A stretch of DNA of 45,959 bases, from the IMG/VR virus record IMGVR_UViG_3300025121_000006; one strand, written 5' to 3'. The position numbers and the translations under genes are program-made. Position 1 is the stretch's first letter, and every line of letters starts with the position of its first letter. The notes under the pieces are model-generated. The model searched no databases, was not told the DNA's origin, and saw only the letters and a program-made list of their open reading frames with translations. Origin of the DNA: a virus. Shown here in pieces: positions 1,848 through 45,091 of this stretch.

Positions 1848-2876
1848 ATGGCTACACTAGGAAACACTGAATTAACCCTTGCCGAAATTCTGCGGCGGGA
1901 GGACCCGAAAGGTCAGCTTCGAGACATCACAGACGTCATATCGAAAGTAAACCAGTTCCAGGACTCGACCTGGATAGAGTGCAATAACGGAACATATCAC
2001 GAGGATGGCCGCCTTGTCAGTAAGCCCGCCGGTTCCCTGCGTATCTACGGGACGGGCGTTTCGGGCGAATCGGCGATAACCGAAGTTATCACGGAACCCA
2101 CCCAGATGCTGGCAGGTCTCTCAAAGGTCGATGCCAAAAAGATTGAGCATTCAGCCAATCCGGCAGGTCTGCGTGCCCAGGAGGATGGTTTCTTTATTTC
2201 CGGCATGTGGGAAACCCACCTTGCCCATATCTTTACCGGCAACCGGGCAACTAACCCCATCCAGATCAACGGTATAAACAACCGGGCCGATTACAACACG
2301 CTGTCAAGCGATTATGTCTATGACAACGCGGGCGGCAACGCAAGCGCCACGGCCAATAAGACAAGTATCTATATCGTGCAGTGGGGCGCGAAAAAGGTCA
2401 ACCTGACCTATCCGCGTAACGATAGCCCCGCCGGCGGCTCAATGCCCATCAAGGTCGAGGATTACAGTAAAGACCTCGAAACAGACCCGAACGCCTCGAC
2501 AAAGCAGCTTCCGATGTACAGGACGTGGTTTGAGGTCAATAACGGCCTGTTTATCCACGACCCGCGATGCATCAAGCGAATCGTCAATATCTCCACCAGT
2601 AATATCGACGGGGTCGATGACTTTTCGTTCGACGAAGAGGTCCTGATCGACGCCTATAACGATATGGAATACGGCGGAGAGGGCGCGGTTATCTACTGCA
2701 ACCGGACCGTCAAGGCCCAGATAATGAAACGGGCCAATGTCAAGGGCAACGCCTACTACGCCACACAGATGGAAGGCGAAGGGCCGTTCGCAAGGCCGGT
2801 GACAAGGTTCTGGGGCATTCCGGTAAGGGAACTATCGACTACGACCATTCCCAATACCGGCGCGCAGATTACATAA
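1848..2876 (+). CDS. major capsid protein
   Basis: 342 aa with a strong SD (TTGGAG) and a long structured leader. It sits between the scaffold-like gene and a strong terminator, and its size and composition are typical of T7-like HK97-fold capsid proteins. Confidence 0.7.
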   Translation: MATLGNTELTLAEILRREDPKGQLRDITDVISKVNQFQDSTWIECNNGTYHEDGRLVSKPAGSLRIYGTGVSGESAITEVITEPTQMLAGLSKVDAKKIEHSANPAGLRAQEDGFFISGMWETHLAHIFTGNRATNPIQINGINNRADYNTLSSDYVYDNAGGNASATANKTSIYIVQWGAKKVNLTYPRNDSPAGGSMPIKVEDYSKDLETDPNASTKQLPMYRTWFEVNNGLFIHDPRCIKRIVNISTSNIDGVDDFSFDEEVLIDAYNDMEYGGEGAVIYCNRTVKAQIMKRANVKGNAYYATQMEGEGPFARPVTRFWGIPVRELSTTTIPNTGAQIT

Positions 2877-2945
2877 ACAGCCGTTTAACCACGAAGGACA
2901 CGAAGAAACACGAAGGAAAAAATTGGAAATTGAAAATTTAAAATA
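2876..2945 (+). repeat. junction element: AACAGCC + A units x3 + AT-rich heptamers
   Basis: AACAGCCGTTTAACCACGAAGGACACGAAGAAACACGAAGG, then GGAAATTGAAAATTTAAAAT. Confidence 0.9.
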
Positions 2946-2957
2946 GGAGATTTTACG

Positions 2958-3410
2958 ATGTTCGATATTAACGAATATTTCACACACGATGGAGCCGGCG
3001 GACTTAGCCAGAGTTTCGCAGCCGACGTCGCACTTAGTACAAATGTCAAGGACCTTGGAGCCGACGGGATGCAGATAGCGGGCGGGCATAAAAAGCCCTC
3101 TGTCTTTATCCACGTAACTACCGCGTTCACAGGCGCGGCAAGCGGCGTGAAAATAACGCTTGAGGACGCCGATAACGCGGCAATATCAAGCAACGCCAGA
3201 GTTTTGTGGCGAAGCGGTATTCTCAACGTCTCGCAATTGGCTGCCGGTACGGTTATAGAGATTCCGCTGCCAGCGGTCGTTTACAAGCGGTATCTTGGCG
3301 TAAGACTGGCCAAGGTATCAGAGGCCGTCACCGCCGGGATCTGGCAGGTTCGGCTCGGACATGCGCCGGAACGCAATATCGCGGCGACAGATATGGACGA
3401 CACAGTATAA
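2958..3410 (+). CDS. putative capsid decoration/cement protein
   Basis: 150 aa immediately after the capsid gene, SD ATAGGAG, followed by a strong rho-independent terminator. The function is inferred from position only. Confidence 0.35.
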   Translation: MFDINEYFTHDGAGGLSQSFAADVALSTNVKDLGADGMQIAGGHKKPSVFIHVTTAFTGAASGVKITLEDADNAAISSNARVLWRSGILNVSQLAAGTVIEIPLPAVVYKRYLGVRLAKVSEAVTAGIWQVRLGHAPERNIAATDMDDTV

Positions 3411-3413
3411 AAA

Positions 3414-3436
3414 CGGGGGTGAAAACCCCCTTTTTT
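3414..3436 (+). terminator. rho-independent terminator after the capsid operon
   Basis: CGGGGG-TGAAAA-CCCCC followed by TTTTTT. Confidence 0.8.
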
Positions 3437-3483
3437 AAAAAAATCAAAAATCAAAACTCAAAATGTAAAAATGAGGTATAAAA

Positions 3484-5898
3484 ATGAAAAAGATAAAAAT
3501 TAACTGGTTGCTTGTTGCCGCTTGTCTGCTGCTGGTTTGTGCCAGTGCTTTAGGCGCGGCGACAAGCTTTAACATTGAGAAAAAGCCGACCGCCGACTGG
3601 TTTCGAAGCGGAGACGCAAAGGATACCGGCTGGGGCTGGGCAAAGGCGATAGATAGACTTGTTTCCGGCGGTTCCGTGACGGGTACGGGCAGTATATTCT
3701 ATGTCGATTCGGGCGTTACCAACGCGGGCGACGGGTCAAGCTGGTCAAACGCGGTCGCTACACTCGATGAGGCGATTGATTTGTGCACTGATGATGCCGG
3801 AGACGTAATCTATGTCGCGGAGGGACATGCCGAAAATATTTCAGGAGCCGGAACTGTAACTTGCGACAAAAGCGGCGTAACGATTATCGGCTACGGAAGT
3901 GGTGATTTGCGGCCAACGTTCACATGGACTGCTGCCGCTGGCACCTGGATAGTTTCCGATAATGCGGTGATGGTCTATAATTGCCGGTTCACCGCCGGAA
4001 TAAGTGCGGTAGTTACGGGCTTTTCGGTTTCCGCCACTGGCGATGCGTTTACCTTGACCGGATGCGAATTTGTGAATCCGGGGACATCGACCTATGAGTT
4101 TATCAATATGATTACTCTTGCGTCCGGCTCGGACTATGTAACCATTGAAGGCAATAAGATGGTTAGTACCGTATCTACTACCGGCTGCGTCAATGCTATT
4201 CTGGCATCGGCGGGCGTCGTTAATCGGCTTACGATTGTCAACAACGATATACAGGGTAACTTCATTACAACTGGCGCGATTTATTCAAACCAGATAAACA
4301 CTAACTGTTTTATTGGATATAATGCTATTCTGCAAACAGCAACCGGAGTTCCAGCTATTAACTTTACCGCAGCCGCAACTGGTTTTTGTGTTAAAAATGT
4401 ACTGTATTCTGATACATTTGGGACGGCGGGTGTTACTATCCTTGACCCGGGTTCAATGGTATGCGCGGAAAACTACGCCATAAACACTACCGACAAAAGC
4501 GCAATCCTTGTTCCGCCGTTGCCCGCTATCAGTACACAGAGCGTAACGGCAGGTTCGGAGGCGGATATTCTCGCCAAACTGTATTACACCGCGGACGGTA
4601 CAGGCGCATATCCGGCCACAATAGCCACAGATTCAGCTTTGGCTAAAATTATGGTCAAAAGTATTACTCCGGATATTACCGCTTACGACAACGCCACTGA
4701 TTCCTTAGAGGCGCTATCGGATCAATTATTGAAGATTGACGGAGTAACCCTTGCAACCGCTCCTACTGCCGCATCATTGGCTTCATTTATTGCCTCTGGC
4801 GGTGTAGCTCTTGGTACACAACTGGCAACCAGCAAATCTCTCGTTGACGCGCTTGGTTCAAACGGTACTACCGTCGCTGATACCGCGACCGGACTGGCCG
4901 GTATTGTTGGCGTTCCTACTGACGCTGATAATGTGGTGGATTCATCGACAATTGTTTCAAATCCAGACGGTTCAGTTCTCGAACGGCAGGAATATCAGCA
5001 GAAATGTCAGGAGATAATTCTGGCTGTCTCTGGTAGAAGCGTAGCAGGTTCAGCCATGCCTCTCGCCGTTTGGTATGTTGACGGCAATATAGGTTCTTCC
5101 GGAAACGGTAAGAGCCCGGCAGCGGCGTTTAAGACTATCGCCGAGGCGATTACCGCGTGCAGTAATACCGTAGATGACTGGGTATTGATCTATGATTTTA
5201 GCGGCGGCGGAGCGACATTAACGATAGACAAGTCGTTTGTCCATCTTATAGGCAACGCGGTAAAAGGTATGCCGTATCCGAGAATTAAACCGGCTTCCGC
5301 CGTTGCCGGTATTACATTTACCGATTCCGGCGACAGGGTTGAGATAGCTAATTTGGTTATCGGCGGCGGAGACCAGACTGTAGCCGCCATTGATTTTGTT
5401 GACTGTACTACCGGAGCTTACGGTAACTATATCCACGATTGTGTAATCGGACGCGATGCGGATGCCCCGGCTAACGACGGTATTTCAATACCGGCGGGCG
5501 CCGACGCGCCGTATTTGGTTGTGGAAAATTGCACATTTTACGGTACTGCGATGAGCGGTTGCGATCAGTCGGGCATTGATATCGCCGGAAACTGTACGGG
5601 CGGGTCAATACTGAATAACTACTTTGCCGATATTGGCTCATCTACTAATCCGGCAATTAACCTGTCCGGTACGGTTGGCAATATGCGAATTGAAGGTAAT
5701 CGCATTGCCGGGACTGATGATACTGCTGCGGGATGGGGGATAACCTTATCCGCTAATTGCACAAACATTTTCGTTGACGATACCCATGCCGCATCTTCTG
5801 ATGCCGCTGGCGACGCATCAGCTTTTCTTGACAGTGCTGCTGATGAAGCAAACGCTTGGGGTATTAACTACACCGATATCACGGCGGATTTACCATAA
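3484..5898 (+). CDS. right-handed beta-helix tail fibre/tailspike-like protein with N-terminal signal-like peptide
   Basis: 804 aa with repeated 'IEGNKM', 'NNDIQGN' and 'IEGNRI' beta-helix rungs. It is G/T/A/S-rich, and the N-terminus is MKKIKINWLLVAACLLLVCASALG. Confidence 0.6.
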   Translation: MKKIKINWLLVAACLLLVCASALGAATSFNIEKKPTADWFRSGDAKDTGWGWAKAIDRLVSGGSVTGTGSIFYVDSGVTNAGDGSSWSNAVATLDEAIDLCTDDAGDVIYVAEGHAENISGAGTVTCDKSGVTIIGYGSGDLRPTFTWTAAAGTWIVSDNAVMVYNCRFTAGISAVVTGFSVSATGDAFTLTGCEFVNPGTSTYEFINMITLASGSDYVTIEGNKMVSTVSTTGCVNAILASAGVVNRLTIVNNDIQGNFITTGAIYSNQINTNCFIGYNAILQTATGVPAINFTAAATGFCVKNVLYSDTFGTAGVTILDPGSMVCAENYAINTTDKSAILVPPLPAISTQSVTAGSEADILAKLYYTADGTGAYPATIATDSALAKIMVKSITPDITAYDNATDSLEALSDQLLKIDGVTLATAPTAASLASFIASGGVALGTQLATSKSLVDALGSNGTTVADTATGLAGIVGVPTDADNVVDSSTIVSNPDGSVLERQEYQQKCQEIILAVSGRSVAGSAMPLAVWYVDGNIGSSGNGKSPAAAFKTIAEAITACSNTVDDWVLIYDFSGGGATLTIDKSFVHLIGNAVKGMPYPRIKPASAVAGITFTDSGDRVEIANLVIGGGDQTVAAIDFVDCTTGAYGNYIHDCVIGRDADAPANDGISIPAGADAPYLVVENCTFYGTAMSGCDQSGIDIAGNCTGGSILNNYFADIGSSTNPAINLSGTVGNMRIEGNRIAGTDDTAAGWGITLSANCTNIFVDDTHAASSDAAGDASAFLDSAADEANAWGINYTDITADLP

Positions 5899-5904
5899 AT
5901 TAAC

Positions 5905-5928
5905 GGGGCGGGAAACCGCCCCTTTTTT
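5905..5928 (+). terminator. rho-independent terminator
   Basis: GGGGCGG-GAAA-CCGCCCC followed by TTTTTT. Confidence 0.85.
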
Positions 5929-5936
5929 AGTATGTA

Positions 5937-6004
5937 AACCGCGGATTTCGCGGATTACACGGATTGAAAAAACAATCAGCGAAATCTGCGTAATCAGCGG
6001 TTAA
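5937..6004 (+). repeat. junction element: B units, then C units (reverse)
   Basis: AACCGCGGATTTCGCGGATTACACGGATTG ... AATCAGCGAAATCTGCGTAATCAGCGGTTAA. Confidence 0.9.
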
Positions 6005-6018
6005 AAAGGTTTCAGTAA

Positions 6019-6657
6019 ATGGCGATCGATATACAAACCGTAAATCTTGCCCTGTTTATGATAGGGGCGAAAAAGCTTGCCAGTCTTAGTGACGATACCA
6101 AGGCGGCAAGGGAAGCTAATACCGTCGGCGACCAGTGCATCAAAGAGGTCTTTGACCTGCCCATCGACTGGCGGTTCGCCGTAGCCCGCGCCGAGCTTGC
6201 CAGGCTTGCGGTAACTCCGGCGTTCGGTAAATACGATTACTACTACGGCAAGCCGGAAAACTGCCGCCGGATCATAGCGACCGTCGATGAGGACGAGGAT
6301 GATATCGAATATGATTTCGACGAGGAAGTCTATATCGATGGGGCGATTCAGACGGATTGTATAGTGTGCAATGAAGAGGAGGTTTTCGTCAAGTATATCG
6401 TACTTCGCGATAATCCCGCCGTATGGCCGGCGTATTTTAAGAAGCTGGTCGCTATAAGAATCGCGCAGTATCTATCGGGCCCGATGAATCCGGAGGGCAA
6501 GGCCTTTTATAACAAACTGGTATTTTTGTGGGACCAGGCCTACGACGAGGCCAAGAGCGGAAACGCGGCCAGAGGAGCGAGGGTAAACAGCAATAATGAA
6601 CGAATAGACGACGGCAATACGGATATTGTCAATGCCGCCGACCGCGATATGGAATAA
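6019..6657 (+). CDS. tail tubular protein A / adaptor (T7 gp11-like)
   Basis: 212 aa. 'VNLALFMIGAKKLASLSDD...DWRF' and 'VKYIVLRDNPAVWPAYF' are laid out like T7 gp11 'VNDILASIGEPPVSTLEGD...GWTF' and 'VNIIRLRDYDEMPECF'. Confidence 0.65.
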   Translation: MAIDIQTVNLALFMIGAKKLASLSDDTKAAREANTVGDQCIKEVFDLPIDWRFAVARAELARLAVTPAFGKYDYYYGKPENCRRIIATVDEDEDDIEYDFDEEVYIDGAIQTDCIVCNEEEVFVKYIVLRDNPAVWPAYFKKLVAIRIAQYLSGPMNPEGKAFYNKLVFLWDQAYDEAKSGNAARGARVNSNNERIDDGNTDIVNAADRDME

Positions 6658-6750: not shown

Positions 6751-7443
6751 ATGAAAAAGAAAACAGACGAGTTAAACGCTGATTACGCAGATTACAAAAA
6801 TAAATTTGTGAAAATATGTGGAAACCTGCGGTTTAAATTCTTGTTTCTTGTTTTTTGGCTACTGTTTCCTGCGGCGTTTGCCGTCGGGGCGGACGGCTAT
6901 CAGCTTGAGACGGTTCAGAAGGGGGCATGGCTGATATCGGAGGCTGATTCGAACGACACGGCTCTTGATGTCAATACGGCAAGCTGGTCGGTGTGCCAGG
7001 ATTGGCGGCCGGATATACCGGCGTGGGCGAACGGACTAAAAGTGATGTTCTACGCTCAATATGTGGTAGTTGATGAGGTTAATGACCTTAACGAGCCTAA
7101 TGACAGCACTTTCAGTTATCAGTTTTATGTGGCCGATTACGGCGGAAACGCGCAGATTGTCGCAAGCGGCGACGCTACCGTCGGGGCCATGCAGCTTTCG
7201 CACGACCCTGTAACGCTTACCGAATTGAATGACGGCGATGCTGCGTTTCGCTATTGCTGGGTCGATACGCTGGGGGCGATTACAACCGACTGGAAGGGGG
7301 GCGTGACAGCTCAAAATGACGCACTGACCAATGATTGCGCGGCCTTTATATTCGACCGGCAATCGGCGAAAAAGGCATGGTGTCGAATTTACAGCAGGTC
7401 AAACGCCAACCTGAAGATATATTGCATAGCTTACGGCTATTAA
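6751..7443 (+). CDS. hypothetical virion-module protein with signal-like N-terminus
   Basis: 230 aa. A C-type element is translated in frame (ELNADYADY), followed by FKFLFLVFWLLFPAAFA. A GTG at 6808 is an alternative start. Confidence 0.5.
   Translation: MKKKTDELNADYADYKNKFVKICGNLRFKFLFLVFWLLFPAAFAVGADGYQLETVQKGAWLISEADSNDTALDVNTASWSVCQDWRPDIPAWANGLKVMFYAQYVVVDEVNDLNEPNDSTFSYQFYVADYGGNAQIVASGDATVGAMQLSHDPVTLTELNDGDAAFRYCWVDTLGAITTDWKGGVTAQNDALTNDCAAFIFDRQSAKKAWCRIYSRSNANLKIYCIAYGY
6762..6795 (+). repeat. junction element inside the 5' end of a CDS: C units, forward
   Basis: AACAGACGAGTTAAACGCTGATTACGCAGATTAC, read in frame as ELNADYADY. Confidence 0.85.
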
Positions 7444-7456
7444 GAAGGACGCAATT

Positions 7457-8272
7457 ATGCGGTATTTTTTAGTATTGCTTTTGTGTTTTACCTGCCTTGC
7501 GATAGACGGCGGAAGATATCAAACCGATACGTCGCATTATCTTACCTTTGACGGTTCGACCGGATATGTAACCGTGCCGGATAATGCCGCGTTGGATTTT
7601 GGTACGGGCAATTTTAGTATAGCGTTCTGGGCGAAGTGGACTTCGGGGCCTATTTTACGCAGATATACGCAGTATAGTATTTATAAATCAAGTATTTATG
7701 CTAATAAACTTGCGTTAAATATCAACGATGGCATCAATTCCGCAACGGTTAATTGCACCGTTACACCTAGTGTGTGGTGCCATGTGGTTTTTACTGCCGA
7801 CAGGTCTGGTTTCGCCAATGCGTATCTAAATGGAACAATCCAATTGGTCGAAATGTCTCCGATAGATAATGTTACCGGAAGTTTGAGCAGCCCGAGCGAG
7901 CCGTTGTTTGTCGGTTACGATGATTCCAGTGTTTTCCTGAACGGCTCACTTGACGACATCCGCATATACAAAAAAGCATTATCGGGGGCGGAGATACTGG
8001 CTATTTACAATCAGGGCGTCGGTGCGATTATGGCCGGAACGGAGACTGGGTTAAGCTGGGGGACAAATGCCGATGATGGGTCGGGCGATACGGTTACGGA
8101 TATTACAGAAACGGTCAATGGCACTATAACCGGCGGCGTTACATGGTCAGAGGGCGGCGTACCTCTAAAAAAAAAATGCGTGGGCGACAGCGATATGAAT
8201 GGTGATGGAATAGTAGATTTTCTGGATTTTGCGATATTCGCAGCCGACTGGCAGAAAGAAACAAATGATTAA
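7457..8272 (+). CDS. LamG/concanavalin-like lectin domain protein with C-terminal dockerin-like motif
   Basis: 'LNGSLDDIRIYKKALSGAEILAIY' is a LamG hallmark. The C-terminus 'DSDMNGDGIVDFLDFAIFAADW' is dockerin/EF-hand-like. The N-terminus is hydrophobic. Confidence 0.6.
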   Translation: MRYFLVLLLCFTCLAIDGGRYQTDTSHYLTFDGSTGYVTVPDNAALDFGTGNFSIAFWAKWTSGPILRRYTQYSIYKSSIYANKLALNINDGINSATVNCTVTPSVWCHVVFTADRSGFANAYLNGTIQLVEMSPIDNVTGSLSSPSEPLFVGYDDSSVFLNGSLDDIRIYKKALSGAEILAIYNQGVGAIMAGTETGLSWGTNADDGSGDTVTDITETVNGTITGGVTWSEGGVPLKKKCVGDSDMNGDGIVDFLDFAIFAADWQKETND

Positions 8273-9392
8273 CCACGAAGGGCACGAAGTGACACGAAGG
8301 GGATTGCTTCGCTGCGCTCGCAATGACAATCAGCGGAATCTGCGTAATCAGCGGTTAAAAATAATTCTCTGTGTTCTCTGTGTTCTCTGTGTCATCTGCG
8401 GCTCTTGTCTTGGCGAAGTGACAAGCAGTACGGTCCAGAATTTCACGACAAATATTGACGGCTTCAATTACGAACTGGATTTTATAAAGATGTCCAGTCT
8501 TTCGGCTACCGCGCCTGTTGTCTACGACGGGGCGGGAGTATTTTCGCTCGATTACGATATCAACGATTTCTGGCTTAACGGCACGACTTTAGAAATAAAC
8601 GACGTCAATATCCACCACGGCAGTTTGTACGGGCTGGCCGCCGACGACCACACACAGTATCTATTAGCAGACGGGACAAGGGGATTATCGGGCAACTGGA
8701 ACGCGGGTGTGTTTGGTATAACAGCCAATTCCTTTACTATAGGGGCCGATACGCTTGCAACGAGCGAATGGGCTTATCTCGATGGGCAGGACCAAGCGGT
8801 AAAAAGCACAAGCATCCCGACTTTCGACGGCCTGACGTCTACCGCACCTTTAGTCGATAATTATGATACTGTTAACGGAAGCGACTGGCTGACTTGTAAA
8901 GACAATGGGACGACAAGTTTTAGGATACTGCATTATGGAACAACCCACGTTAAGTTATTGGCAACCGACAATTTATATTTTGAATGTGACACCGTCGTGT
9001 TTAATCCTGCCAATGGCATATTTTCTGTGCAGGCCGGAACTAATGGAATTTTTGAGAGCTATGGAAGGCCCTGTATTGTAAGAAGCAGAGCTGGAGCGTA
9101 TGCCCTTATCCTAAAAACAAACGATATTACCGCCATCACAATAGACGGCACTTCTCAAAATGTCGCCGTAAGCAACTATCTTAGGGTCGGTTCTGCCGTT
9201 GCCCCTACCGTACCTCTCGACGTTACCGGTGCAATCCTCGGTTCGACTACGATAGAGGCAGGAACAGGCTTTAAGTGCGGCGGAACTGCGGCGGTAGCTG
9301 ACGGTACTTATAATTTTGATGGTACGGCGGCAGGGACAGTATCAACGATGACTTTCAAGGGTGGTATTTGTACGGGAATAACAACAAGATGA
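8265..9392 (+). CDS. tail fibre protein
   Basis: 'HHGSLYGLAADDHTQYLLADGTRGLSGNWNAG' is a common phage tail-fibre motif. The ATG at 8265 overlaps the upstream stop. The first ~55 codons are encoded entirely by junction elements. Confidence 0.6.
   Translation: MINHEGHEVTRRGLLRCARNDNQRNLRNQRLKIILCVLCVLCVICGSCLGEVTSSTVQNFTTNIDGFNYELDFIKMSSLSATAPVVYDGAGVFSLDYDINDFWLNGTTLEINDVNIHHGSLYGLAADDHTQYLLADGTRGLSGNWNAGVFGITANSFTIGADTLATSEWAYLDGQDQAVKSTSIPTFDGLTSTAPLVDNYDTVNGSDWLTCKDNGTTSFRILHYGTTHVKLLATDNLYFECDTVVFNPANGIFSVQAGTNGIFESYGRPCIVRSRAGAYALILKTNDITAITIDGTSQNVAVSNYLRVGSAVAPTVPLDVTGAILGSTTIEAGTGFKCGGTAAVADGTYNFDGTAAGTVSTMTFKGGICTGITTR
8269..8391 (+). repeat. composite: A units x3 + palindromic unit + C (reverse) + TTCTCTGTG x3
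   Basis: TTAACCACGAAGGGCACGAAGTGACACGAAGGGG; GATTGCTTCGCTGCGCTCGCAATG; AATCAGCGGAATCTGCGTAATCAGCGGTTAA; TTCTCTGTG x3. Confidence 0.9.
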
Positions 9393-12007
9393 AAATGAGA
9401 AATAAGAAATTAGAAATTAAAAGCCTTCGTGGAACTTCGTGTTCTTCGTGGTTAAAATTCTTGTTTCTTGTGTCTTGTGTCTTGTTTCTTGCCGCCCCTG
9501 CGGCGGCTTATCGCCAGACGACAAATACGCTAAACGGGGGGGAACTATCGCCACTGCTCGAGGGCAGGAGCGATATTGAAAAGTATTACAGCGGATGCCG
9601 GACTCTTGAAAATTTCCTTGTTCTCTCGCACGGAGGCGTAACAAAAAGGCCAGGGACGGCCTATATTGCAACCGCCAAGACTGCGGGCGATACAGTCAGA
9701 TTGATACCTTTTGAGTATTCGACCGAACAGGCCTATATCCTCGAATTCGGCGATGAGTATATAAGGTTCTATAAAGATAGCGGCCAGATAACATCCGGCG
9801 GCAGCGCTTATGAGATAGTTTCACCTTACGATAAAAGCGATCTATTTGAATTGCAGTATATTCAGTCCGCCGATGTGATGTATATAGTCCATCCCGATTA
9901 TGCTCCGCGTCAGCTTACAAGGACGGGTCACACGGCCTGGACTATATCGGCGGTCGATTTCCAGCGTGGGCCGTTTCTGGCCGAGAATACGACCGATATC
10001 ACAATAACGCCGTCGGCGACGACCGGCACGATAACACTTACGGCAAGCGATGATATATTCGATGCCAATCACGTCGGGGCGCTGTGGCAGATAAATCATA
10101 CCATAGGGACTGAAAAGGCACTGCCGTACTGGTCGGGTACCGATACCGGAACGGAGGCCGGCCCGACGGTTCAACTGGGCCGCAGGTGGGAGCTTACCAC
10201 GCACGGGACATGGAACGGGGTATTGAAGCTGGAAAAAAGTTACGATGGTACAAACTGGACAGATGAATATATAGTATCGAGCGTAAACGACGATAACCGG
10301 CAGGCGCCGGGCATAGAGGAAAGAGACGACGCGGTGTACCGGCTGAATATGGAAAGCCACATATCCGGAACGATATACGTGCGGTTTTACGCCTTTAGCC
10401 ACGAGATACAGGGCGTTGTCCGCATAACGGCCGTCACAAGCGCAACAAGTGCAACGGCGACGGTAGTTAATACCCTTGGTGGTACGACGGCGACGGCCAG
10501 ATGGGCGGAAGGGGCGTTTAGCGAAGATGAAGGGTATCCGCGGGCTGTAGCGTTCTACGAAGAGCGGCTCGCCTTTGCGGGCACGAGGAACAGCCCGCAG
10601 ACTATATGGATGAGCCAGACGAACGATTGGCCGAACTTTTACGCAGGCGCCGAGGCCGATCAGGCGATAAGCTACACAATCGCAAGCGATAAGGTGAACG
10701 CGATATACTGGATGGCGGCGGCAAATTCGCTGCTATTGGGGACTTCGGGCGGGGAGTGGAAACTAAACGGCGGCAATAACGGAGAGGCTCTTAGCCCGTC
10801 GGTTCCGCCGGTATGCCGAAGGCAGTCGAGCTACGGAAGCGAATATCTCCAGCCGCAGCTTACCGAGAACGTCGTTTTGTACGTGCAGAGGCAGAGCAAG
10901 AAGATTCGGGAAATGGCCTATTCGTTCGAGCAGGATGGCTACGTCAGTCCTGATATGACCATACTTGCCGACCATATAACAGGCACAGGGATAACGCAGA
11001 CGGCGTTTTCCAAGACGCCCGACCCGATACTGTGGTGCGTTACGGGCGATGGATACCTGGCCGAGCTTACCTATAACAGGGAACAGAATGTCACCGCGTG
11101 GAGCCGGATAGTTACAGATGGCGACATTGAATCGGCTGCGGTAATACCCGGCGATGGCGAAGATGAGGTGTGGGTTTCGGTAAAGAGGACTATCGACGGC
11201 ACAGATTACCGGTATATTGAGCAGTTCAGTGCGAGAGATTTTGGCTCGGATCAGGCGGACGCGATATTAGTCGATTCAAGCCTGTCTTTCGACGGCGGCG
11301 ACAGTGTTACGATAACCGGCGTTACAAACGCAAATCCGGCGGTTGTCACGGCGGCAGGTCACGGCTTCGCCGATGGCGAGCAGATTCGGTTTTCAAGCGT
11401 CGGCGGAATGACGCAGTTAAATAATAAGGTCTTTACCGTCGATTCGCCGGGGTTAAATAGTTTCACCCTGTACGATAAGACAAACGCAGTCGCGATAAAT
11501 TCCAGTGCGTTTTCTACATATACAAGCGGTGGATCGTGCGAGCAGGTAGAGAATACATTTACGACGCTTAGCCATTTAGAGGGCCAAACGGTTCAGGTCG
11601 CAGCAGACGGGGGCTATTACGGCACAGAGACGGTTAGTTCCGGTACCGTGACACTTGCCGATTTTTACAATAAGGTTCATATCGGACTTGGCTACACGGC
11701 CAAATTACTGCCGCAGCGGCTTGAAGTGCCGGGCGGGAATCTTACGGGCAGGGAAAAGAGGATAACGAAACTTACAATGCGGTTTAATAAGAGCCTTAGC
11801 TGTCGGGCGGGGGTAAGCTGGACGGAATACGACAATATAGTGTTTCGCGATGCCGACGATCTGCTGGAGGCGGCAAGCCCGTTATACAGCGGCGATAAGG
11901 AAATAGACTTTGACGGAGACTGGGACACGCAGGGCGATATCTATATCTTAAACGAGCTGCCCGTGCCGTGTACGATACTATCGATTACGACGGAGTTTGA
12001 TTTATGA
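9389..12007 (+). CDS. tail tubular protein B / nozzle (T7 gp12-like)
   Basis: About 870 aa. 'TNTLNGGELSPLLEGRSD...GGVTKRPG' parallels T7 gp12 'IKNLKGGISQQPDILRYPD...EGLQKRPP'. An ATGA overlap couples it to the upstream gene. Confidence 0.6.
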   Translation: MKMRNKKLEIKSLRGTSCSSWLKFLFLVSCVLFLAAPAAAYRQTTNTLNGGELSPLLEGRSDIEKYYSGCRTLENFLVLSHGGVTKRPGTAYIATAKTAGDTVRLIPFEYSTEQAYILEFGDEYIRFYKDSGQITSGGSAYEIVSPYDKSDLFELQYIQSADVMYIVHPDYAPRQLTRTGHTAWTISAVDFQRGPFLAENTTDITITPSATTGTITLTASDDIFDANHVGALWQINHTIGTEKALPYWSGTDTGTEAGPTVQLGRRWELTTHGTWNGVLKLEKSYDGTNWTDEYIVSSVNDDNRQAPGIEERDDAVYRLNMESHISGTIYVRFYAFSHEIQGVVRITAVTSATSATATVVNTLGGTTATARWAEGAFSEDEGYPRAVAFYEERLAFAGTRNSPQTIWMSQTNDWPNFYAGAEADQAISYTIASDKVNAIYWMAAANSLLLGTSGGEWKLNGGNNGEALSPSVPPVCRRQSSYGSEYLQPQLTENVVLYVQRQSKKIREMAYSFEQDGYVSPDMTILADHITGTGITQTAFSKTPDPILWCVTGDGYLAELTYNREQNVTAWSRIVTDGDIESAAVIPGDGEDEVWVSVKRTIDGTDYRYIEQFSARDFGSDQADAILVDSSLSFDGGDSVTITGVTNANPAVVTAAGHGFADGEQIRFSSVGGMTQLNNKVFTVDSPGLNSFTLYDKTNAVAINSSAFSTYTSGGSCEQVENTFTTLSHLEGQTVQVAADGGYYGTETVSSGTVTLADFYNKVHIGLGYTAKLLPQRLEVPGGNLTGREKRITKLTMRFNKSLSCRAGVSWTEYDNIVFRDADDLLEAASPLYSGDKEIDFDGDWDTQGDIYILNELPVPCTILSITTEFDL
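9397..9491 (-). repeat. composite: heptamers + A units (reverse) + degenerate reverse A (CTTGTKTCTTG run)
   Basis: CCTTCGTGGAACTTCGTGTTCTTCGTGGTTAA is about 30 nt identical to 45016-45047. It is followed by TTCTTGTTTCTTGTGTCTTGTGTCTTGTTTCTTG. Confidence 0.9.
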
Positions 12008-12080: not shown

Positions 12081-13763
12081 ATGATTGATTTTACGCAGTT
12101 TGATAGCGATGAAAAAATAGTAAAGGCGATAAGCAGCCATAACGGTCAGCTTCGCAATATCCGAAAGTTCTACGAGGGACTTTGGGATGTCGAGGCTAAG
12201 TTATTTTTGCCCAGAAGATACGACCTTTTGCGGCAGGCGATGAAGGGTCAAAAATACGGGGCAAAGGTCTATGACGGGCATCCGGCCAACGCGGTCAATA
12301 AATTCGTTCTTGGGCTGCAAGGAAACATGATAAGCCGGTCGGTGCCGTGGCTGCAATTTACGACAAGTAACCAGAGATTGTTAAATAACGACGAGGTCAA
12401 AAAGTATTTACAGGAATCGACAGAGCAGGTTCTATGGTCGTTTAATCGCAGTAATTTCTACGGTTCCAGCGTATGGCAGGGTAAAGACGCCTGCACTTTC
12501 GGAACGGGGGCGATGGTACCGGAAATTGATATGGCAAAAGGCAGGATTGTATATCATACCGTCCATCCCGGCGAAAGCTGGATAGCAGATGATCAGTACG
12601 GAAGCGGGGCGGTCTATCAGAGAGAATTCAAGATGGCGGCGATTACGCTATTGGAAAAGTTCGGAGCCGATAAGCTGCCAAGCCAGGTATTGAGGGACGC
12701 GCAGGGCAAGGGGCAGGGTCAGCCCTTTACCGAATATAAATGCCTGCTGGCGATCTATAAGAATGTAAAGCCCAATCCGGATAGTCTCCTGCCGGAGGAT
12801 AAGCCGTATAAGGTATTTTATATCCTTGAAAGCGGGGCGCATTCCAAGAAGGATTCGCTTTTACAGAAAAGCGGTATGGACTGGTTTCCTCTTCTTTGGC
12901 GGCAGGGCAGGGAAGATGGGCTTGCCTACGGGACAAGTATCGCAGCCGACGCCCTTACCGAGGGATTGCAGGTAAACCAGATAGGTAAAAAGCAGCTTGA
13001 GCTATTAGCCATAGCGATAGAGGGCAGATGGCTCATTCACGAGAACCTGCGGAATAAGTTCAAGACTAATCCAGGCGGCAGGACGTATTTTGCAAAAACC
13101 GATGAGGATGTAAGACCCCTATCAGATAAGGCGCAGAACTGGCCCTTGGCCGATGACTACGCGGAGAGGATTCATAGTTCCATAGATGATAAGTTCTTTA
13201 TCAGGTTCTTTGAGCTGCTTAGCAGCGGGGAATTTAAGAATATTACCGCATACCAGGCAAGCCAGATGCTCGGTGAAAAGGCAAGCCTTATGTCGGCGAT
13301 CGTGGGCGAATACGAAGAACATGTTTTAGAGCCGGCGGTCGATATCCAGTTCGCGTTCGAGCAGATGGCAGGCAGAATGCCCCAGCCTCCGGATATACTG
13401 CTCGAAGAGGGCGGCAAGGTGGATATCAGCTATATCGGGCCGTTGGCGCAGATGCAGCGGGCGGTCATGCAGAGCAAAGGGATTGTCAACGCACTGCCGT
13501 TAATGCAGGCGATCGGTGCGATTTGGCCGCAGGCGCTTGTAAAGATAAACGAGATGGAACTTATCGAGGACGCCGGTATCAGCCAGGGTATGAAACAGAC
13601 GTACTTCAAATCGGATGAAGAGGTTAAGGCGATACTCGAACAGCAGGCAGCGCGTCAGGAGGCGATGGAGAACGCCGAAATGGCGGGAAATATGGCAAAG
13701 GCGGCAGGGCCGATGGGTAAACAGATCGAGGCGGGCAGTCCGCTTGATGCGATGATGGGATGA
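12081..13763 (+). CDS. portal (head-to-tail connector) protein, T7 gp8-like
   Basis: 560 aa. Its size, the 'ANAVNKFVLGLQGNMISRSVPWLQF' segment and the M/A/Q-rich C-terminal tail resemble podovirus connectors. Confidence 0.7.
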   Translation: MIDFTQFDSDEKIVKAISSHNGQLRNIRKFYEGLWDVEAKLFLPRRYDLLRQAMKGQKYGAKVYDGHPANAVNKFVLGLQGNMISRSVPWLQFTTSNQRLLNNDEVKKYLQESTEQVLWSFNRSNFYGSSVWQGKDACTFGTGAMVPEIDMAKGRIVYHTVHPGESWIADDQYGSGAVYQREFKMAAITLLEKFGADKLPSQVLRDAQGKGQGQPFTEYKCLLAIYKNVKPNPDSLLPEDKPYKVFYILESGAHSKKDSLLQKSGMDWFPLLWRQGREDGLAYGTSIAADALTEGLQVNQIGKKQLELLAIAIEGRWLIHENLRNKFKTNPGGRTYFAKTDEDVRPLSDKAQNWPLADDYAERIHSSIDDKFFIRFFELLSSGEFKNITAYQASQMLGEKASLMSAIVGEYEEHVLEPAVDIQFAFEQMAGRMPQPPDILLEEGGKVDISYIGPLAQMQRAVMQSKGIVNALPLMQAIGAIWPQALVKINEMELIEDAGISQGMKQTYFKSDEEVKAILEQQAARQEAMENAEMAGNMAKAAGPMGKQIEAGSPLDAMMG

Positions 13764-13771
13764 AAAAATAT

Positions 13772-13887
13772 TTAACCACAAAAAACACGAAGAAAAAGAA
13801 ATTAACCGCGGATTTCGCGGATTACACGGATTAAGAAAATGAAAAAAAACAAAAAAATCAGCGGAATCTGCGTAATCAGCGGTTAAG
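13772..13887 (+). repeat. composite: A + B + C (reverse)
   Basis: TTAACCACAAAAAACACGAAG; TTAACCGCGGATTTCGCGGATTACACGGATTAAG; AATCAGCGGAATCTGCGTAATCAGCGGTTAAG. Confidence 0.9.
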
Positions 13888-14252: not shown

Positions 14253-14789
14253 ATGTTAAAGTTTAGAGAATTTACAGCCAAGGATGCAGAGCTGATCGCG
14301 GCAAACGCGGTCGATAGCGAGCTGCGCGGTAAAAGCGGCGAATGGGTCAAATACTGGTCTTTAGTTTGTGAAAATAAAGGGTTCGGATATACGGCGTTTT
14401 TAACCACGAAAAACACGGAAGAAAATAAAACAGCCGGGTTAAACGCTGATTCCGCAGATTACGCTGATGGAAAATCAGAGGCGGGAGATATTATCGGGGC
14501 GGCGGGGGTGACTTTTTCGGCCAATAGCTGCGGGACGGTGTGGGCGATATTTACGCAGCAGGTCCGCCGATACAGCAAAGAGACTCTGCGGAGTATGAGG
14601 ACTGTTCTTTATGATTTTATTGTGCCGGAATGCGGACTAAAAAAACTGCGGGCATTGTCGAGAGTTAATTTCACGGCGTCGCAGAGATTGCTGGAGGCGA
14701 TGGGGTTTGTTAAAAAGGGAAAAAGAGGCGATTATTATCTATATATAAAACAGTTTAACCACGAAGGACACGAAGATGCACGAAGATAA
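14253..14789 (+). CDS. GNAT-like acetyltransferase carrying an in-frame junction-element insertion
   Basis: The C-terminal 'KKLRALSRVNFTASQRLLEAMGFVKKG' is GNAT-like. Residues 'LTTKNTEENKTAGLNADSADYADG' are encoded by an A + AACAGCC + C composite element. Confidence 0.45.
   Translation: MLKFREFTAKDAELIAANAVDSELRGKSGEWVKYWSLVCENKGFGYTAFLTTKNTEENKTAGLNADSADYADGKSEAGDIIGAAGVTFSANSCGTVWAIFTQQVRRYSKETLRSMRTVLYDFIVPECGLKKLRALSRVNFTASQRLLEAMGFVKKGKRGDYYLYIKQFNHEGHEDARR
14400..14470 (+). repeat. composite A + AACAGCC + C embedded in frame in the GNAT-like CDS
   Basis: TTAACCACGAAAAACACGGAAGAAAATAAAACAGCCGGGTTAAACGCTGATTCCGCAGATTACGCTGATGG. Confidence 0.9.
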
Positions 14790-14790
14790 G
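14749..14790 (+). repeat. junction element: A units spanning a stop/start overlap
   Basis: AACAGTTTAACCACGAAGGACACGAAGATGCACGAAGATAAG. Confidence 0.9.
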
Positions 14791-15360
14791 TGGTTGCGTG
14801 ATTTTGTAAGGCAGGCGGGCAGGTACGTTCCCGATGATGTCGAATTGATAGAGCGTGGCGGAAGAATTTTCTTCGCGCATGCAAGGTTTCGGTTCGACCT
14901 TCTAACATTGGGAGTAATGGCGGCGGGCACGACGATGAACGCGATGGCGGCAAGGCAGCAGGGTAAGGCGAGTGCTGCGATAAATAAATATAACGCGGCG
15001 GTCGATGAGAAGGCGGCCGGCCAGATAGAAAAGGCGGGACTTGCCGAGCAGGCCGAGCGGAAGGACAGGACAAGGCAACTATTAGCGGCCAATAGGGTCG
15101 CTTACGGCAAGAGCGGCGTTGGTATGGCGGGTAGTCCCTTATTAAATGACCTTGACGTTTTGGAAAAAGGAGTGCTCGATAGCGAGATGACCGGCTACAA
15201 CGCAAGGACTTCGGCTGACCAGAAGAGAAGCGAGGCGGTAGCCTCGAGGCTTGCGGCAAATTCGGCCCGAAGGGCGGGCAGGCTGGGGATAGGGCAGGCG
15301 CTGTTCGGCGGTGCGACGGACGCTTTGATACTGAATAGCAGGAAAAAAGAATATGCTTAA
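14776..15360 (+). CDS. putative internal virion (ejection) protein
   Basis: 194 aa, A/G/R-rich. The ATG follows GAAGGACACGAAG directly, and the stop TAA lies inside the next TTAACCACG element. The function is inferred from position. Confidence 0.4.
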   Translation: MHEDKWLRDFVRQAGRYVPDDVELIERGGRIFFAHARFRFDLLTLGVMAAGTTMNAMAARQQGKASAAINKYNAAVDEKAAGQIEKAGLAEQAERKDRTRQLLAANRVAYGKSGVGMAGSPLLNDLDVLEKGVLDSEMTGYNARTSADQKRSEAVASRLAANSARRAGRLGIGQALFGGATDALILNSRKKEYA

Positions 15361-15473
15361 CCACGAAGGACACGAAGAGACACGAAGGAAACAGCCAATT
15401 TTAACGCTGATTACGCAGATTACGCTGATGAAAAAAAGTTTAGGGTTTAGGGTTTAGAAATTAGAGATTAAAG
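15357..15473 (+). repeat. full composite: A x3 + AACAGCC + C x3 + GTTTAGG/AATTAGA heptamers
   Basis: All module types occur in one 117-nt spacer, ending 3 nt before the ATG at 15477. Confidence 0.95.
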
Positions 15474-17176: not shown

Positions 17177-20100
17177 ATGGCAGATTTTGCAACAACATTC
17201 GCGGCGGTCGATAAGCAGAAAAAGGACAGGTTCGCACAGACTTTTAGAGAGGTCGAACAGGCCAAAGAAAACGAGGCATGGAATACGCTTGCCGCGGAGG
17301 GGGCTGTTTACGAGCCGTTCTTTGAGAAAATTGAGCAGGCCGAACTTGCCGAGCGGGAACTGTTTAGCAAAGAGCAACTTGATTACAGTAAGAGACTGGG
17401 CGGGAAAGTGCCCAATATGGCGTTATACGACGAGGCACTTAACTACGCCGACGATAAGACCATCAGTAAAATGGACGACAGCCAAAGGTGGGAACTGGTC
17501 AAAGAGAACAGGGCAAAAAGAGCCGAAATGGGTTATAAGTTTCTGCCGGTAGATAAGAAAAAACTTATGACGGGAGGCTATTCGGCGGACGGAAAGCCGG
17601 TTTTTAACGGGCCGACTATCAGGGCGGCCAACGCGACGTATTTAGCGGGCGCTACGGGGATGGAGGTCGAAAGTGCGGCGGTTCTCTACGATTCGCTGGT
17701 GACGGGGCTTTGGGGCGATAAAGAACCGAACGACATCAAGCCGTTGGGTAAATTGATTCGAAAATGGTATTCGGATAAAAGGCTTATAGAAAGCGGGATA
17801 TATCCCGAGATTTACAGGGCTGCGCAGAGGTACGCGGCGGGCGATAATACGGTTGACTGGGATATTGTAAGGGGCAATCTTTCGAGGGAAAAAGAGGAAC
17901 TGTTCAATTCCTATATCAGCCAGATGGGCAGGCCAAAACAACGGGGCGTTTTCGGCAAGACAGCGGAGGTCTTAAAACGAAGTATCGGCAGATCGGCGCA
18001 GAATATAACGGATTTTAGAACCTTGGTTGTGCCGGAAAAAACATTAAGCCAGCCAATTGAGCAGATGAAGGCCTTTAGCGAATTTAAGGCAAGGGAGGGC
18101 AGAGAGCCGACGGCGGAAGAATCTTTGCTGATTATGCAGGAAGCGACAAGCCGAATGAAAGAGCGGGTAATAGGCCGCAAAAAGAGTAAAGAGGCACTTG
18201 AAGCGGGCGATCCGGTTAAAGGGGAAAGCATACCCGGCAAACTGTTCTACGGCACACTTTCAATTGCGCCAGATGTACTGGCAAGCGCAGGACTGACGAT
18301 AGCGGCAAAAAGCCCCGTAGCGAGCTTTCAATACTGGTATATGCTGACGGCGACGGATATCTATACCGATATGGCCGATCTGGGATTCGAGGACGAGGCG
18401 GCCACGAATACAGCGAAAATCCTTGCCCTGCCGGTCGCGGCGGTAGAGTTCCTGCAGGCGGGCCAGTGGACGAAAGGATTGACCGGTGCGGCCAGGAAAA
18501 AAGCGGTCGCAAAGGCGCAGCAGGGTTTGACAAATTATCTGGCCGGTAAGCTCAAAGGTGGGCTGGTCAATTTCGGCAAAGAATACGGCCAAGAGATTCA
18601 GCAAAGCGGCCTGAAGGTCGCGGGCATGGCGTTTGCCTCATCGCTTACAGAGGATGCGCCGGATGTGAACTGGTGGGACGATGTGATAAGCCCGGAGATT
18701 GGCGGACTGGGCGAGGCGCTTTGGAGTTTTCCGGGGCTTACCGTTGGGTTTGGGGCAGCCGAGATTGGCAGCGAAGCGAAGATGGTACGCAGGATTATGA
18801 AAGATCATCCCGGCATCGATGCGGCCACGGCTCGCGCGGCGGTCTATAACGCCAAAAGTGGGGCGTTCGATGACGCGATAGAGGCAGGACTGGAAGCGAA
18901 ACAATTGATTCCGTTTACGGTCGAGGAACTAAATAGCCGGGTCGAAGAGACAAAGGCAAAATTAACTGACCTATCAGCGATGGAGGGCGGGCAAAATAGC
19001 GAACTTCTTGAATATACCCAGCGCAGGCTTGCGATACTGAAGGATGGCGGGGACAGGGGCGAACTTGCCGCATCGGCCAGCCGTTACGGGATTGACGAGG
19101 ATTTCGACGAGGAAACAGCCGAACAGCCATTCACCACAGAAGGCACAGAAGAAATAAAAGGCACAGAAGGGAAAATGGGGGCGGAATACAGGGATGCGGT
19201 GGTTGGGGCGGTGCGGGGGATTTTAGAGGCGAATGGGATTGCGGCACAAATCAGGGCGGTCGAAAATATAGAACTGCCCGAAGGTGCGGAAGGTCAGCAG
19301 GCGGCGGCGCAGCAGGCAAGGGGGGCGTTCTATTTCGATGGGGACGGGGCCAAGGTAATACAGCTTGCGTTTGCGTATAACGAAAATCGCAGGCCGGCGG
19401 ATATCACAACGGCGGGTCATGAATCGTATCACGCGCTGGCGGAGCTATTGACCGATGAGGAACGGGCGGCGGTCGCTGCCCAGTTTGGCGAAAATGAGGA
19501 TATGCAGGCGGAAGGGTTCGGGGTATGGTTAGGGGATAGGGTACAGGGTAGAGGGGATAAAGCAGGGGGAATAGTTTCACGGGCGTTTGAGAGGATCGCG
19601 GAGCTTTTAAAAAAGATTTATGCGGCGTTAAAAAAAGAGGGGCTTACTTATAAAAGTGTGTTTGAGGGTGTCGCCGCAGGCGAGTTAAAAGGCAGAACAT
19701 CGAACATCGAACGCTCAACATCGAACGTTGAATCAGGAAGGCAAACAGCCGGTAGTATTTTATATCACGGTACAGATAATGCAGAATCTATTTTGAAAAA
19801 CGGATTTACTTTCAAAAGTAGAAATTTCAAAGGGGAACGGGGCGAATTTGGAAACTCCATATCACTTTCGCCGGATAAAAATTTCGCCAAAATATACGGC
19901 AAAGATGTCATAGAAATAAAACTTAAGCCCAATATCAAATTGTTTGAAAATGAGGGCTATTCCGTTGATCATTTCAGTAGAACGAAATTTCATGATAGAG
20001 TGGAAGAGTTAGAGTCTAATGGGATTTCCGGTGAAAAAGCCACAGAAACGGCTATCGACGAATTAAAAGAGCAGGATTATGGCGGTATAAAAACCACTTA

Positions 20101-23578: not shown

Positions 23579-23645
23579 TGGAAAATTTGAAATTTGAAAA
23601 GGAGTTCAATATGCTTAACCACGAAAAGCACGAAGGGCACAAAAG
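23579..23645 (+). repeat. heptamers + SD + ATG + A units (translated)
   Basis: GGAAAATTTGAAATTTGAAAAGGAG...ATGCTTAACCACGAAAAGCACGAAGGGCACAAAAG. Confidence 0.9.
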
Positions 23646-25633: not shown

Positions 25634-25726
25634 AAAAAAAATTAAAAATAAAATATTAAAAATCAAAAATGAAAGGAGTCAAAAACAATGTTTAACCACG
25701 AAGGACACGAAGGGACACGAAAAGGG
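25634..25726 (+). repeat. A-rich heptamers + SD + ATG + A units x3 (translated)
   Basis: AAAAATTAAAAATAAAATATTAAAAATCAAAAATGAAAGGAG...ATGTTTAACCACGAAGGACACGAAGGGACACGAAAAGGG. Confidence 0.9.
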
Positions 25727-30552: not shown

Positions 30553-30649
30553 CAGCGGAACAGATGTGTTAAACGCTGATTACGCTGATTACGCAGATTG
30601 AAAATTGAAGAAAACTTCGCAGAACTTCGTGTTCTTCGTGGTGAAAAAA
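30551..30649. repeat. composite: C units (forward) + A units (reverse)
   Basis: GTTAAACGCTGATTACGCTGATTACGCAGATTG ... ACTTCGCAGAACTTCGTGTTCTTCGTGGTG. Confidence 0.9.
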
Positions 30650-41055: not shown

Positions 41056-41059
41056 AAGA

Positions 41060-41075
41060 CTTTTGTTAACAATTG
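41060..41075. promoter_or_regulatory. palindromic box CTTTTGTTAACAATTG, copy 2 (upstream of terS)
   Basis: 16 nt identical to 1616-1631. Confidence 0.5.
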
Positions 41076-41125
41076 CTGGTTTTTCGCTTGCGGTTGTTGA
41101 ACCAATAGTAGGAAGATAAGGCTTT

Positions 41126-44465: not shown

Positions 44466-44474
44466 AAAAAAAGA

Positions 44475-45084: not shown

Positions 45085-45091
45085 TAAAATT

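Follow-up and report, generated by a model that had tools for sequence, protein, structure and literature searches.

How does a repeat that stands between genes come to be read as protein in the middle of one? The question is raised by open reading frame (ORF) 14253-14789 of IMG/VR virus record IMGVR_UViG_3300025121_000006, a phage sequence whose whole stretch of 45,959 nucleotides we call the window. The ORF encodes a small protein with a predicted GNAT fold and contains, from position 14400 onwards, a composite of short repeats whose relatives lie at the gene junctions of the same genome. Our analysis argues, with a probability that we put at about 0.8, that positions 14400-14477 are a secondary in-frame insertion, a copy of the phage's own gene-junction repeat, in a hairpin of the GNAT fold.

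The composite and its intergenic paralogue

The composite consists of an array of CACGAAGG-type 9-mers (A), the segment AACAGCC-NNN-TTAAAC and an array of GATTACGC-type 9-mers (C). Its parts in the GNAT gene, and the copy that resembles them most, are as follows.

14400-14420, plus strand: degenerate A-type half of the insert (TTAACCACGAAAAACACGGAA), read LTTKNTE, with 17 of 21 positions matching the A consensus; colinear with 15357-15377.
14429-14477, plus strand: AACAGCC head, GGG-TTAAAC, C-type 9-mer array and GATGGAAAAT, read (K)TAGLNADSADYADGKS.
15357-15435, plus strand: intergenic composite of A, AACAGCC and C, the closest paralogue of the insert by blastn and alignment.

Positions 14400-14471 (TTAACCACGAAAAACACGGAAGAAAATAAAACAGCCGGGTTAAACGCTGATTCCGCAGATTACGCTGATGGA) form codons 50-73 of the ORF and are read as LTTKNTEENKTAGLNADSADYADG. 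An initial annotation of this DNA had described an in-frame composite at 14400-14470 in which TTAAC escapes being a stop by its phase. We find the same sequence in the same frame: codon 50 begins at 14400, TTAACC is read TTA-ACC and the frame is stop-free to 14789. The segment that is extra relative to homologous proteins is slightly longer than had been described, 26 residues or about 78 nt, and reaches about 14477; the region spanning it (residues 45-85) includes the peptide NTEENKTAGLNADSADYADGK.

The two halves differ in their state of preservation. The head and C half (14429-14464) carries 1 mismatch at 33 specified positions of the pattern AACAGCC-NNN-TTAAAC-(GCNGATTAC)n, and the A half has lost both of its GGA motifs. 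Over its length the insert follows the order of the intergenic composite at 15357-15435 (blastn, 79.7% identity over 79 nt, E 3.5e-12), in which TTAA provides the stop codon of the gp14-like gene. Judged by sequence, the junction repeats and the insert are paralogues.

The host gene and its homologues

14253-14789, plus strand: single GNAT-fold gene of 178 aa, directly upstream of the gp14-like gene; recognised from the ORF, its homologues, the structure model and Foldseek.
14755-14789, plus strand: perfect A copy that forms the C-terminal tail of the GNAT gene, FNHEGHEDARR*, and holds the ATG of the gp14-like gene (14776).

Exhaustive HMMER searching was needed for this family, as word-indexed searches with the GNAT protein and with a 124-aa ORF of the same phage returned just themselves. 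It yielded 56 homologues of the GNAT ORF. Those of 120-200 aa measure 132-163 aa, except one of 190 aa (P0004), and in many the query aligns in two stretches, residues 1-49 and about 78-166. Where the query has residues 50-79 (30 aa), 49 of the 52 homologues of 120-200 aa have 4 residues; the other three have 5, 6 (P0026) and 25 (P0004). The closest relative found (L148), whose gp16-like and gp15-like proteins are 56-64% and 47% identical to those of this phage, carries an orthologue of 134 aa that is also insert-free and has the short turn FYEDGKLVAVGG. Most homologues also lack the FNHEGHEDARR tail and end 1-4 residues past a conserved YLY motif. Since GNAT homologues occur without it, we conclude that the element does come to be copied to new places.

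The initial annotation called the gene GNAT-like, and the predicted structure bears this out. An AlphaFold2 (AF2) model built on the family alignment (predicted local distance difference test, pLDDT, 82.8) has the element order of a GNAT domain (beta1-alpha1-alpha2-beta2-4-alpha3-beta5-alpha4-beta6-7), and a Foldseek search of the PDB gave GNAT acetyltransferases in all of the listed top 50 (probability 1.0, template-modelling score 0.51-0.65). In the model the insert (pLDDT 45-63) is a hairpin loop with strand 43-50 on one side and strand 80-89 on the other; from residue 173 onwards, in the tail, pLDDT falls below 50. The Pfam family Acetyltransf_3 matches the ORF over the full profile at E 0.003, with 18.5 bits against a cut-off of 25.4, and matches 7 of 20 relatives at E<=0.01. 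No obvious G-x-G of the acetyl-CoA motif (Q/R-x-x-G-x-G/A) follows strand 93-101 in the family alignment. A weak match to phrog_308, 'internal virion protein' (E 1.3e-4, residues 73-158), accompanies a position that fits a T7 gp13-like gene, one of about 140 aa immediately upstream of gp14-, gp15- and gp16-like genes.

Calls of the identical GNAT protein exist on 11 contigs; four of its places are listed, and these come from four different samples and sources (two ENA assemblies, one JGI and one Logan) with different assemblers. For this reason we do not regard the insert as an artefact.

Copies at gene junctions

The A 21-mer was searched with up to 3 mismatches and shuffled sequence served as control. 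The window holds 19 such matches against 0 expected, and 6 matches to the head and C pattern against 0 in shuffles; by Tandem Repeats Finder, the period of A and C alike is 9 nt across the window. All copies were then placed on the public gene calls, and a copy was counted as deep when it lay more than 25 codons from a gene end. By this measure, a single A copy out of 21 and a single C copy out of 15 are deep, both of them in the GNAT insert, in a genome of which 75% is deep (P 1.6e-11 and 4.5e-8). The A copies are mostly solitary and non-palindromic, and 18 of 21 are co-oriented with the genes (P 0.0015).

At the junctions the elements supply stop codons, Shine-Dalgarno-like units and start codons, and TAA-CCACGAAGGACACGAAG-ATG is a candidate translational coupling cassette. 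The TAA within TTAACC is the stop of the upstream gene at 136, 15357, 17135 and 41710, TAA-ACAGCC is a stop at 1102 and 2874, and the reverse C copy gives GCG-TAA stops at 1305, 35398 and 41041. The sequence ...CACGAAG-ATG is a start at 1134, 14776, 34760 and 41731 (similarly at 32966), with a Shine-Dalgarno-like GAAGGA unit 7 nt upstream, and ATG-NTT-AAC-CAC... begins ORFs at 8265, 15353, 23611 and 25688.

The element is therefore both spacer and coding sequence, as the initial annotation had stated, and it makes up the ends of many ORFs. Element-derived C-terminal tails begin at 14755, 29329, 35050, 35381, 35635 and 41033, and are necessarily translated if the gene itself is; the reverse-C tails among them (..SAKSA*) lie at 29329-29372, 35381-35400 and 41033-41043. 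Element-derived N-terminal leaders (6762, 8265, 23611, 25688 and 29004) depend on the choice of start codon. Copies outside the GNAT gene, and two repeats of other types, are as follows.

6762-6797, plus strand: head and C copy, codons 4-15 of a called 230-aa ORF; translated solely if the start is ATG 6751.
13796-13887, plus strand: intergenic C and reverse-C pair forming a long hairpin (-27.9 kcal/mol, z -6.1), the usual non-coding context.
19112-19172, plus strand: deep in-frame copy in the 2132-aa gp16-like gene, with the AACAGCC head twice, TTCACC and CACAGAAGG 9-mers; read EETAEQPFTTEGTEEIKGTEGK.
23611-23645, plus strand: ATG and A copy (MLNHEKHEGHKRG) before a hydrophobic segment of a 684-aa pectate-lyase-like tail protein.
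25688-25722, plus strand: ATG and A copy (MFNHEGHEGTRKG) before a signal-peptide-like segment of a 155-aa ORF.
28998-29035, plus strand: A copy (29004-29035), codons 3-13 (GTTKGTKRHE), in the 124-aa ORF; the ATG of this ORF overlaps the preceding stop.
35050-35113, plus strand: head and C copy (35050-35085) as the C-terminal tail of ORF 34781-35113, by read-through.
35635-35675, plus strand: A copy as the C-terminal tail NINHKGHEGTQEGW* of an 84-aa NMN_transporter-like ORF, by read-through.
35861-35896, plus strand: two CACAGAGG units of an A-related variant family, a distinct element, inside a 109-aa ORF.
39909-39943, plus strand: array of four AACCAGT heptamers, a different repeat type, inside a 129-aa ORF.

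Five further in-frame copies had been proposed. Three of them (6762, 29005 and 35049) hold up as A or C copies and lie at the ends of ORFs, the N-terminal ones subject to the start codon, but 35861-35896 is a two-unit CACAGAGG variant and not the same element, and 39904-39944 is an unrelated heptamer array. Our survey adds the A-type N-terminal copies at 8265, 23611 and 25688, the A tails at 35635-35675 and 14755-14789, the reverse-C tails and 19112-19172. The PHROG match of the 124-aa ORF spans residues 38-114 alone, and the 84-aa ORF has an orthologue in a related contig (L126) whose tail is different.

Read-through of repeats probably accounts for two public gene calls, the 34-aa ORF 15353-15457 and the first 40 or so codons of 8265-9392. 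The 34-aa ORF is made of the intergenic composite alone. The other is a 375-aa gene, whose start (8265-8392) strings together units of four types: A, a hairpin of GATTGCTTCGCTGCGCTCGCAATGAC type, reverse C and reverse CACAGAGA. The start of 8265-9392 is likely mis-called and 15353-15457 is likely a spurious gene. Among the reverse copies, the three minus-strand A copies at 9435-9455, 30625-30645 and 45025-45045 share a common sub-variant (CACGAAGAACACGAAGTTCCACGAAG), and between a reverse A or C copy and the next start there is often a conserved AAAATGGATTTGAAATTTGAAATTT module (44424-44478, 45041-45095, 1331-1385).

Probable colonisation, seen against relatives

Three relatives at a greater distance (L142-L144) share the gene order of this phage; their genes overlap or abut and have no such spacers between them. 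The closest relative, L148, has a few spacer elements. Within the GNAT family, two other members hold inserts in the same loop. The P0026 protein, which belongs to another phage and is 31% identical to the GNAT protein, carries TTCACCACGAAGGACACAAAAC, matching A at 18 of 21 positions, and this is the sole A-like sequence on its 4.7-kb contig. Because the two proteins are so diverged and the A sequence is so near consensus, the P0026 copy is unlikely to be an inherited neutral insert. The 190-aa P0004 protein has a different, duplicated AT-rich spacer-like sequence in the loop, and its C-terminal tail is another TTAAC-headed repeat. We infer from these sequences that the P0026 and P0004 inserts are independent and have survived since the turn is a permissive site of a small protein. 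The second deep copy of this phage, in the gp16-like gene, lies where a homologue (P0058) has a shorter and different acidic linker.

Element-free junctions in relatives, inserts in the same loop and a second deep copy together make it probable, in our judgement, that this genome has been colonised by the elements. The initial annotation had offered two explanations, that the element moves or recombines, or that neighbouring genes are repeatedly fused and split at it. The first part stands, in that the element was copied to a site where homologues have none. The second does not: both halves of the GNAT gene align to single proteins of 132-163 aa with one domain, and elsewhere ORFs merely run a few codons into or out of spacers.

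Alternative explanations

Several observations weigh against insertion by a mobile element into a permissive loop. The flanks of the insert show no target-site duplication, no terminal inverted repeat was found for it (its A and C halves are non-complementary), and the called genes include no transposase family, just two tyrosine recombinases. Nor is there presence/absence polymorphism, all assemblies of the phage being identical at the insert, so movement would be read from the pattern of copies. A metagenome scan returned 0 matches to an empty-site allele, and likewise 0 to its filled-site control, and so weighs on neither side. Nor does a comparison of N-terminal and C-terminal identities across homologues for signs of recombination, the homologues all lying at much the same distance (rho 0.04). 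With no homologue to cover it, the insert would in part be expected to have a low pLDDT. The insert would be translated, and its loop would be tolerated rather than functional. Finally, the near-perfect C half (1/33) beside the decayed A half could mean that the C half is kept for a role in DNA or RNA.

This last point leads to the rival that survives best, although we consider it improbable: the in-gene copy would be retained as a binding site, as an internal translation or processing signal, or for pairing with the reverse-C sequence 13856-13887, and the peptide would be a by-product. Besides the contrast between the halves, the C copy 14439-14470 is complementary to 13856-13887 at 27 of 30 positions, the 101-nt insert region folds modestly better than shuffles (z -2.8), and C and reverse-C pairs elsewhere form strong hairpins (z -6.1). 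However, 13856-13887 is already paired locally with 13796-13830, the insert lies 147 nt inside the gene with no in-frame start after it, and not at a junction, where signals of this kind would make sense, and no repeat-binding factor was identified.

Still less probable is a loop that has been co-opted and become functionally important, for instance as a flexible acidic loop for virion assembly or ejection. The same loop is filled in 3 of 53 family members, and the insert is intact and identical across samples; yet neither sequence nor length (6, 25 and 30 residues) relates the three inserts to one another, which fits a permissive site, and a 4-residue turn suffices in 49 of the 52 homologues.

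That 14253-14789 is two genes or a pseudogene with an untranslated spacer, or an assembly chimera, is suggested by the element being a spacer otherwise and by gene callers running ORFs through spacers (8265-9392, 15353-15457), but we give it almost no credence: there is no in-frame stop in 14253-14789 and no in-frame ATG after the insert (ATG 14467 is out of frame), the two halves make up one GNAT domain, as its N-terminal and its C-terminal part, and this domain is one protein in all homologues, and the sequence is identical in assemblies from different assemblers and samples.

An insertion copied from the gene-junction repeat remains the reading that we prefer. The comparison with orthologues leaves 49 of 52 homologues and the L148 orthologue without the segment, and structure prediction places it between two strands of a hairpin; both had been named as checks in the initial annotation.

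Proposed mechanism

At the junctions, the TTAA or the TAA-ACAGCC head would stop the upstream gene, GAAGGA would act in the manner of a ribosome-binding site and ...CACGAAG-ATG would often start the next gene; phase permitting, the elements would be read as short N- or C-terminal tails. A junction composite may then have been copied into a loop-coding position of the GNAT gene. We infer arrival by copy-and-insert, through the behaviour of a non-autonomous mobile element or through template switching or recombination with a junction copy such as 15357-15435. The insert would be read as a hydrophilic loop of about 26 residues (LTTKNTEENKTAGLNADSADYADGKS), probably disordered, and its A half would now be decaying. 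It would survive because its length is divisible by three, because TTA-ACC is among the stop-free frames of the element and because it lies at a turn on the protein surface. With a 9-nt period, equal to three codons, the element keeps the frame however many units it gains or loses.

Distribution beyond this phage

The exact A 21-mer, TTAACCACGAAGGRCACGAAG, occurs in at least 120 stretches of bacterial genome contigs from many phyla, against a calculated chance expectation of about 0.5 in 596 Gb. The taxa include Herpetosiphon isolates (Chloroflexota), many Acidobacteriota, Verrucomicrobiota, Bacteroidales (Bacteroidota), Gamma- and Deltaproteobacteria, Spirochaetaceae (Spirochaetota), Brocadiaceae, Kiritimatiellia and Lentisphaerae. 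The bacterial copies tend to be paired: an inverted partner lies within 240 nt downstream in 58 of 115 cases versus upstream in 6 of 113, and the typical form is TTAACC(ACGAAGGNC)n - loop - (GNCCTTCGT)nGGTTAA. A strict pattern search of 843 kb around bacterial A copies found no C-type arrays near them. In IMG/VR, 16 contigs hold the 21-mer, and besides L126 none has tblastx protein similarity to this phage; in four of the loci (L131, L139, L140 and L126) the copies lie at junctions, co-oriented and sometimes right before an ATG.

In four bacterial loci (L052, L013, L034 and L039), A-type inverted arms enclose an ORF of about 127 aa of the GxxExxY or PD-(D/E)XK-like type, which begins a few nt past the A arm. 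At a fifth locus (L083), a homologous GxxExxY ORF lies between direct repeats of a C-like sequence, GCAGATGAACGCTGATGAAC. The arrangement suggests, at the level of sequence, small ORF cassettes bounded by A- or C-type repeats in bacteria.

The presence of the 21-mer in those bacterial stretches, and in contigs of unrelated phages, argues against a phage-specific regulatory motif (promoter, stoperator or start-associated sequence) as the identity of the element; the called genes showed no RNA polymerase family. An integron attC site was dropped informally: the GTTAAAC of some C heads agrees with GTTRRRY, and the sequences of A and of the other C copies do not. The label of miniature inverted-repeat transposable element (MITE) was also set aside, on palindrome or terminal inverted repeats and on target-site duplication and transposase. 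Literature searches by element sequence and by description returned no report on the element, and 'GxxExxY' appeared in passing mentions.

We raise, tentatively and as less likely true than false, the idea that A and C represent an undescribed class of very small, cross-phylum repeats with a TTAAC head and frame-neutral units of 9 nt or three codons, which spread between bacteria and phages, would serve as hairpin arms or as arms of GxxExxY-nuclease cassettes in bacteria and as stop, ribosome-binding and start signals at phage junctions, and would keep remodelling protein termini and permissive loops. If this were true, an active and widespread source of variation in protein length would have the GNAT insert among its visible results. 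Should the 21-mer mark a mobile system or a universal RNA-level signal, it would be of general interest, and we regard the element family as a more interesting open question than the in-gene insertion.

Genome context

The first 127 nt of the window are identical to its last 127 nt, and for this reason we take the window to be the complete genome of a phage, about 45.8 kb long. Nearly all of its genes run on the plus strand, and public gene calls with Pfam matches give the layout of a BPP-1-like or T7-like podovirus, with capsid (GP7), Bbp16, portal (12081-13763), and small and large terminase among the called genes. The gene that follows the GNAT gene is the following.

14776-15360, plus strand: gp14-like internal virion protein (phrog_418, E 5e-19).

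Downstream of it come a 553-aa protein and then the 2132-aa gp16-like protein. A 3-nt indel (GAT) at 14833-14835 in the gp14-like gene is the sole difference from the JGI 3300025073 contig over 3.9 kb. The two tyrosine recombinases are an integrase at 27348-28163 (minus strand) and a second at 36006-36902, and a Tad2-like ORF (PF11195, an anti-Thoeris family) is listed at 45092-45616; with these genes it is probable that the phage is temperate and has a gene against host defence. A cultured-phage collection gave no match to the GNAT protein, the composite DNA or the 124-aa ORF, and a portal-based search of IMG/VR returned no relative. Terminase relatives in cultured phages reach at most 42% identity and are spread over many hosts; because they are so distant and varied, we assign no host.

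Rfam gave no credible match over the whole window. Canonical terminators (GC stem and T-run) lie at 5899-6010 and 3411-3440, right behind the stops of an 804-aa and a 150-aa gene, and a long C and reverse-C hairpin comes after the former. At 34168-34290, inside ORF 33866-34702 (HTH_36), five tandem 25-nt units each contain a small palindrome (CACGACAAAAGTGTCGTG); this array is iteron-like and may mark a replication origin. A palindromic motif, CTTTTGTTAACAATTG, is shared by about 1615-1635 and about 41058-41078, each time 3' of a different gene, and may be an operator or promoter element.

A gene for an 872-aa protein is interrupted in L148, where positions 2580-6457 correspond to 9389-12007 of the window: residues to about 575 and from about 582 are on separate ORFs, about 1.9 kb apart, and the gap holds a 426-aa ORF between heptamer-type spacers. 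Its sequence is that of a gene split or fused between relatives, but not at an A or C element.

Comparison with known systems

Phages have several kinds of junction repeat, among them the start-associated sequences and stoperators of mycobacteriophages, the PeSL cassettes of T4-like phages, and T7-type promoters and RNase III sites. Like these, the present elements are asymmetric conserved motifs at many junctions, co-oriented with transcription and near stop or start codons. Each of the known motifs belongs to one phage cluster and to the repressor or RNA polymerase of that cluster, whereas the A core is also found as inverted pairs in the chromosomes of many bacterial phyla, and no cognate protein was identified for it; because the 21-mer occurs across phyla, a phage-specific regulator is unlikely.

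Small dispersed repeats (SDR) of cyanobacteria are reportedly about 20-30 nt long, lack transposase, terminal inverted repeats and target-site duplications, are nested in short tandemly repeated repetitive sequences (STRRs) and occasionally lie inside conserved genes. The phage element is like them in size, in its mosaic nature and in the missing hallmarks of transposition. Unlike it, they come from Nostocales chromosomes, have other sequences and are not known to show a 9-nt period or use as stop, Shine-Dalgarno or start signals.

To our knowledge, in-frame colonisation of genes by selfish repeats is confined to a few bacterial lineages and does not extend to phage structural genes. The GNAT gene would offer a clean case: its protein has a single domain, many of the homologues have no insert and the insert is predicted to sit in a loop. 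Junction repeats that create N- and C-terminal tails are also a source of annotation error, several called starts and the 34-aa 'gene' being probably read-through.

The enclosed ORFs in bacteria recall intervening sequence (IVS) cassettes that hold an ORF between inverted repeats, such as the Coxiella 23S rRNA IVS with S23p (PMC4990558), in that A arms in four loci enclose a small ORF. Unlike the Coxiella IVS, the A loci lie outside rRNA and hold another ORF family, and the phage copies are solitary and enclose nothing; by analogy, an IVS-like cassette is a lead.

The closest analogy, which is not expected to extend to sequence, appears to be with Rickettsia palindromic elements (RPEs) and other intragenic MITE-like repeats. 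In-frame fusions of RPEs, with predicted structural compatibility, have been described (PMC10969869). As with RPEs and repeats such as ERIC and BOX, a dispersed short repeat is found here both between genes and in frame, stop-free within genes, and as with RPEs the insert is, in the model, compatible with the protein fold. RPEs are palindromes of about 100-150 bp confined to Rickettsia; in contrast, the phage units are 9-mer arrays of 20-40 nt, mosaic, mostly solitary and phage-borne, with a core 21-mer that crosses phyla.

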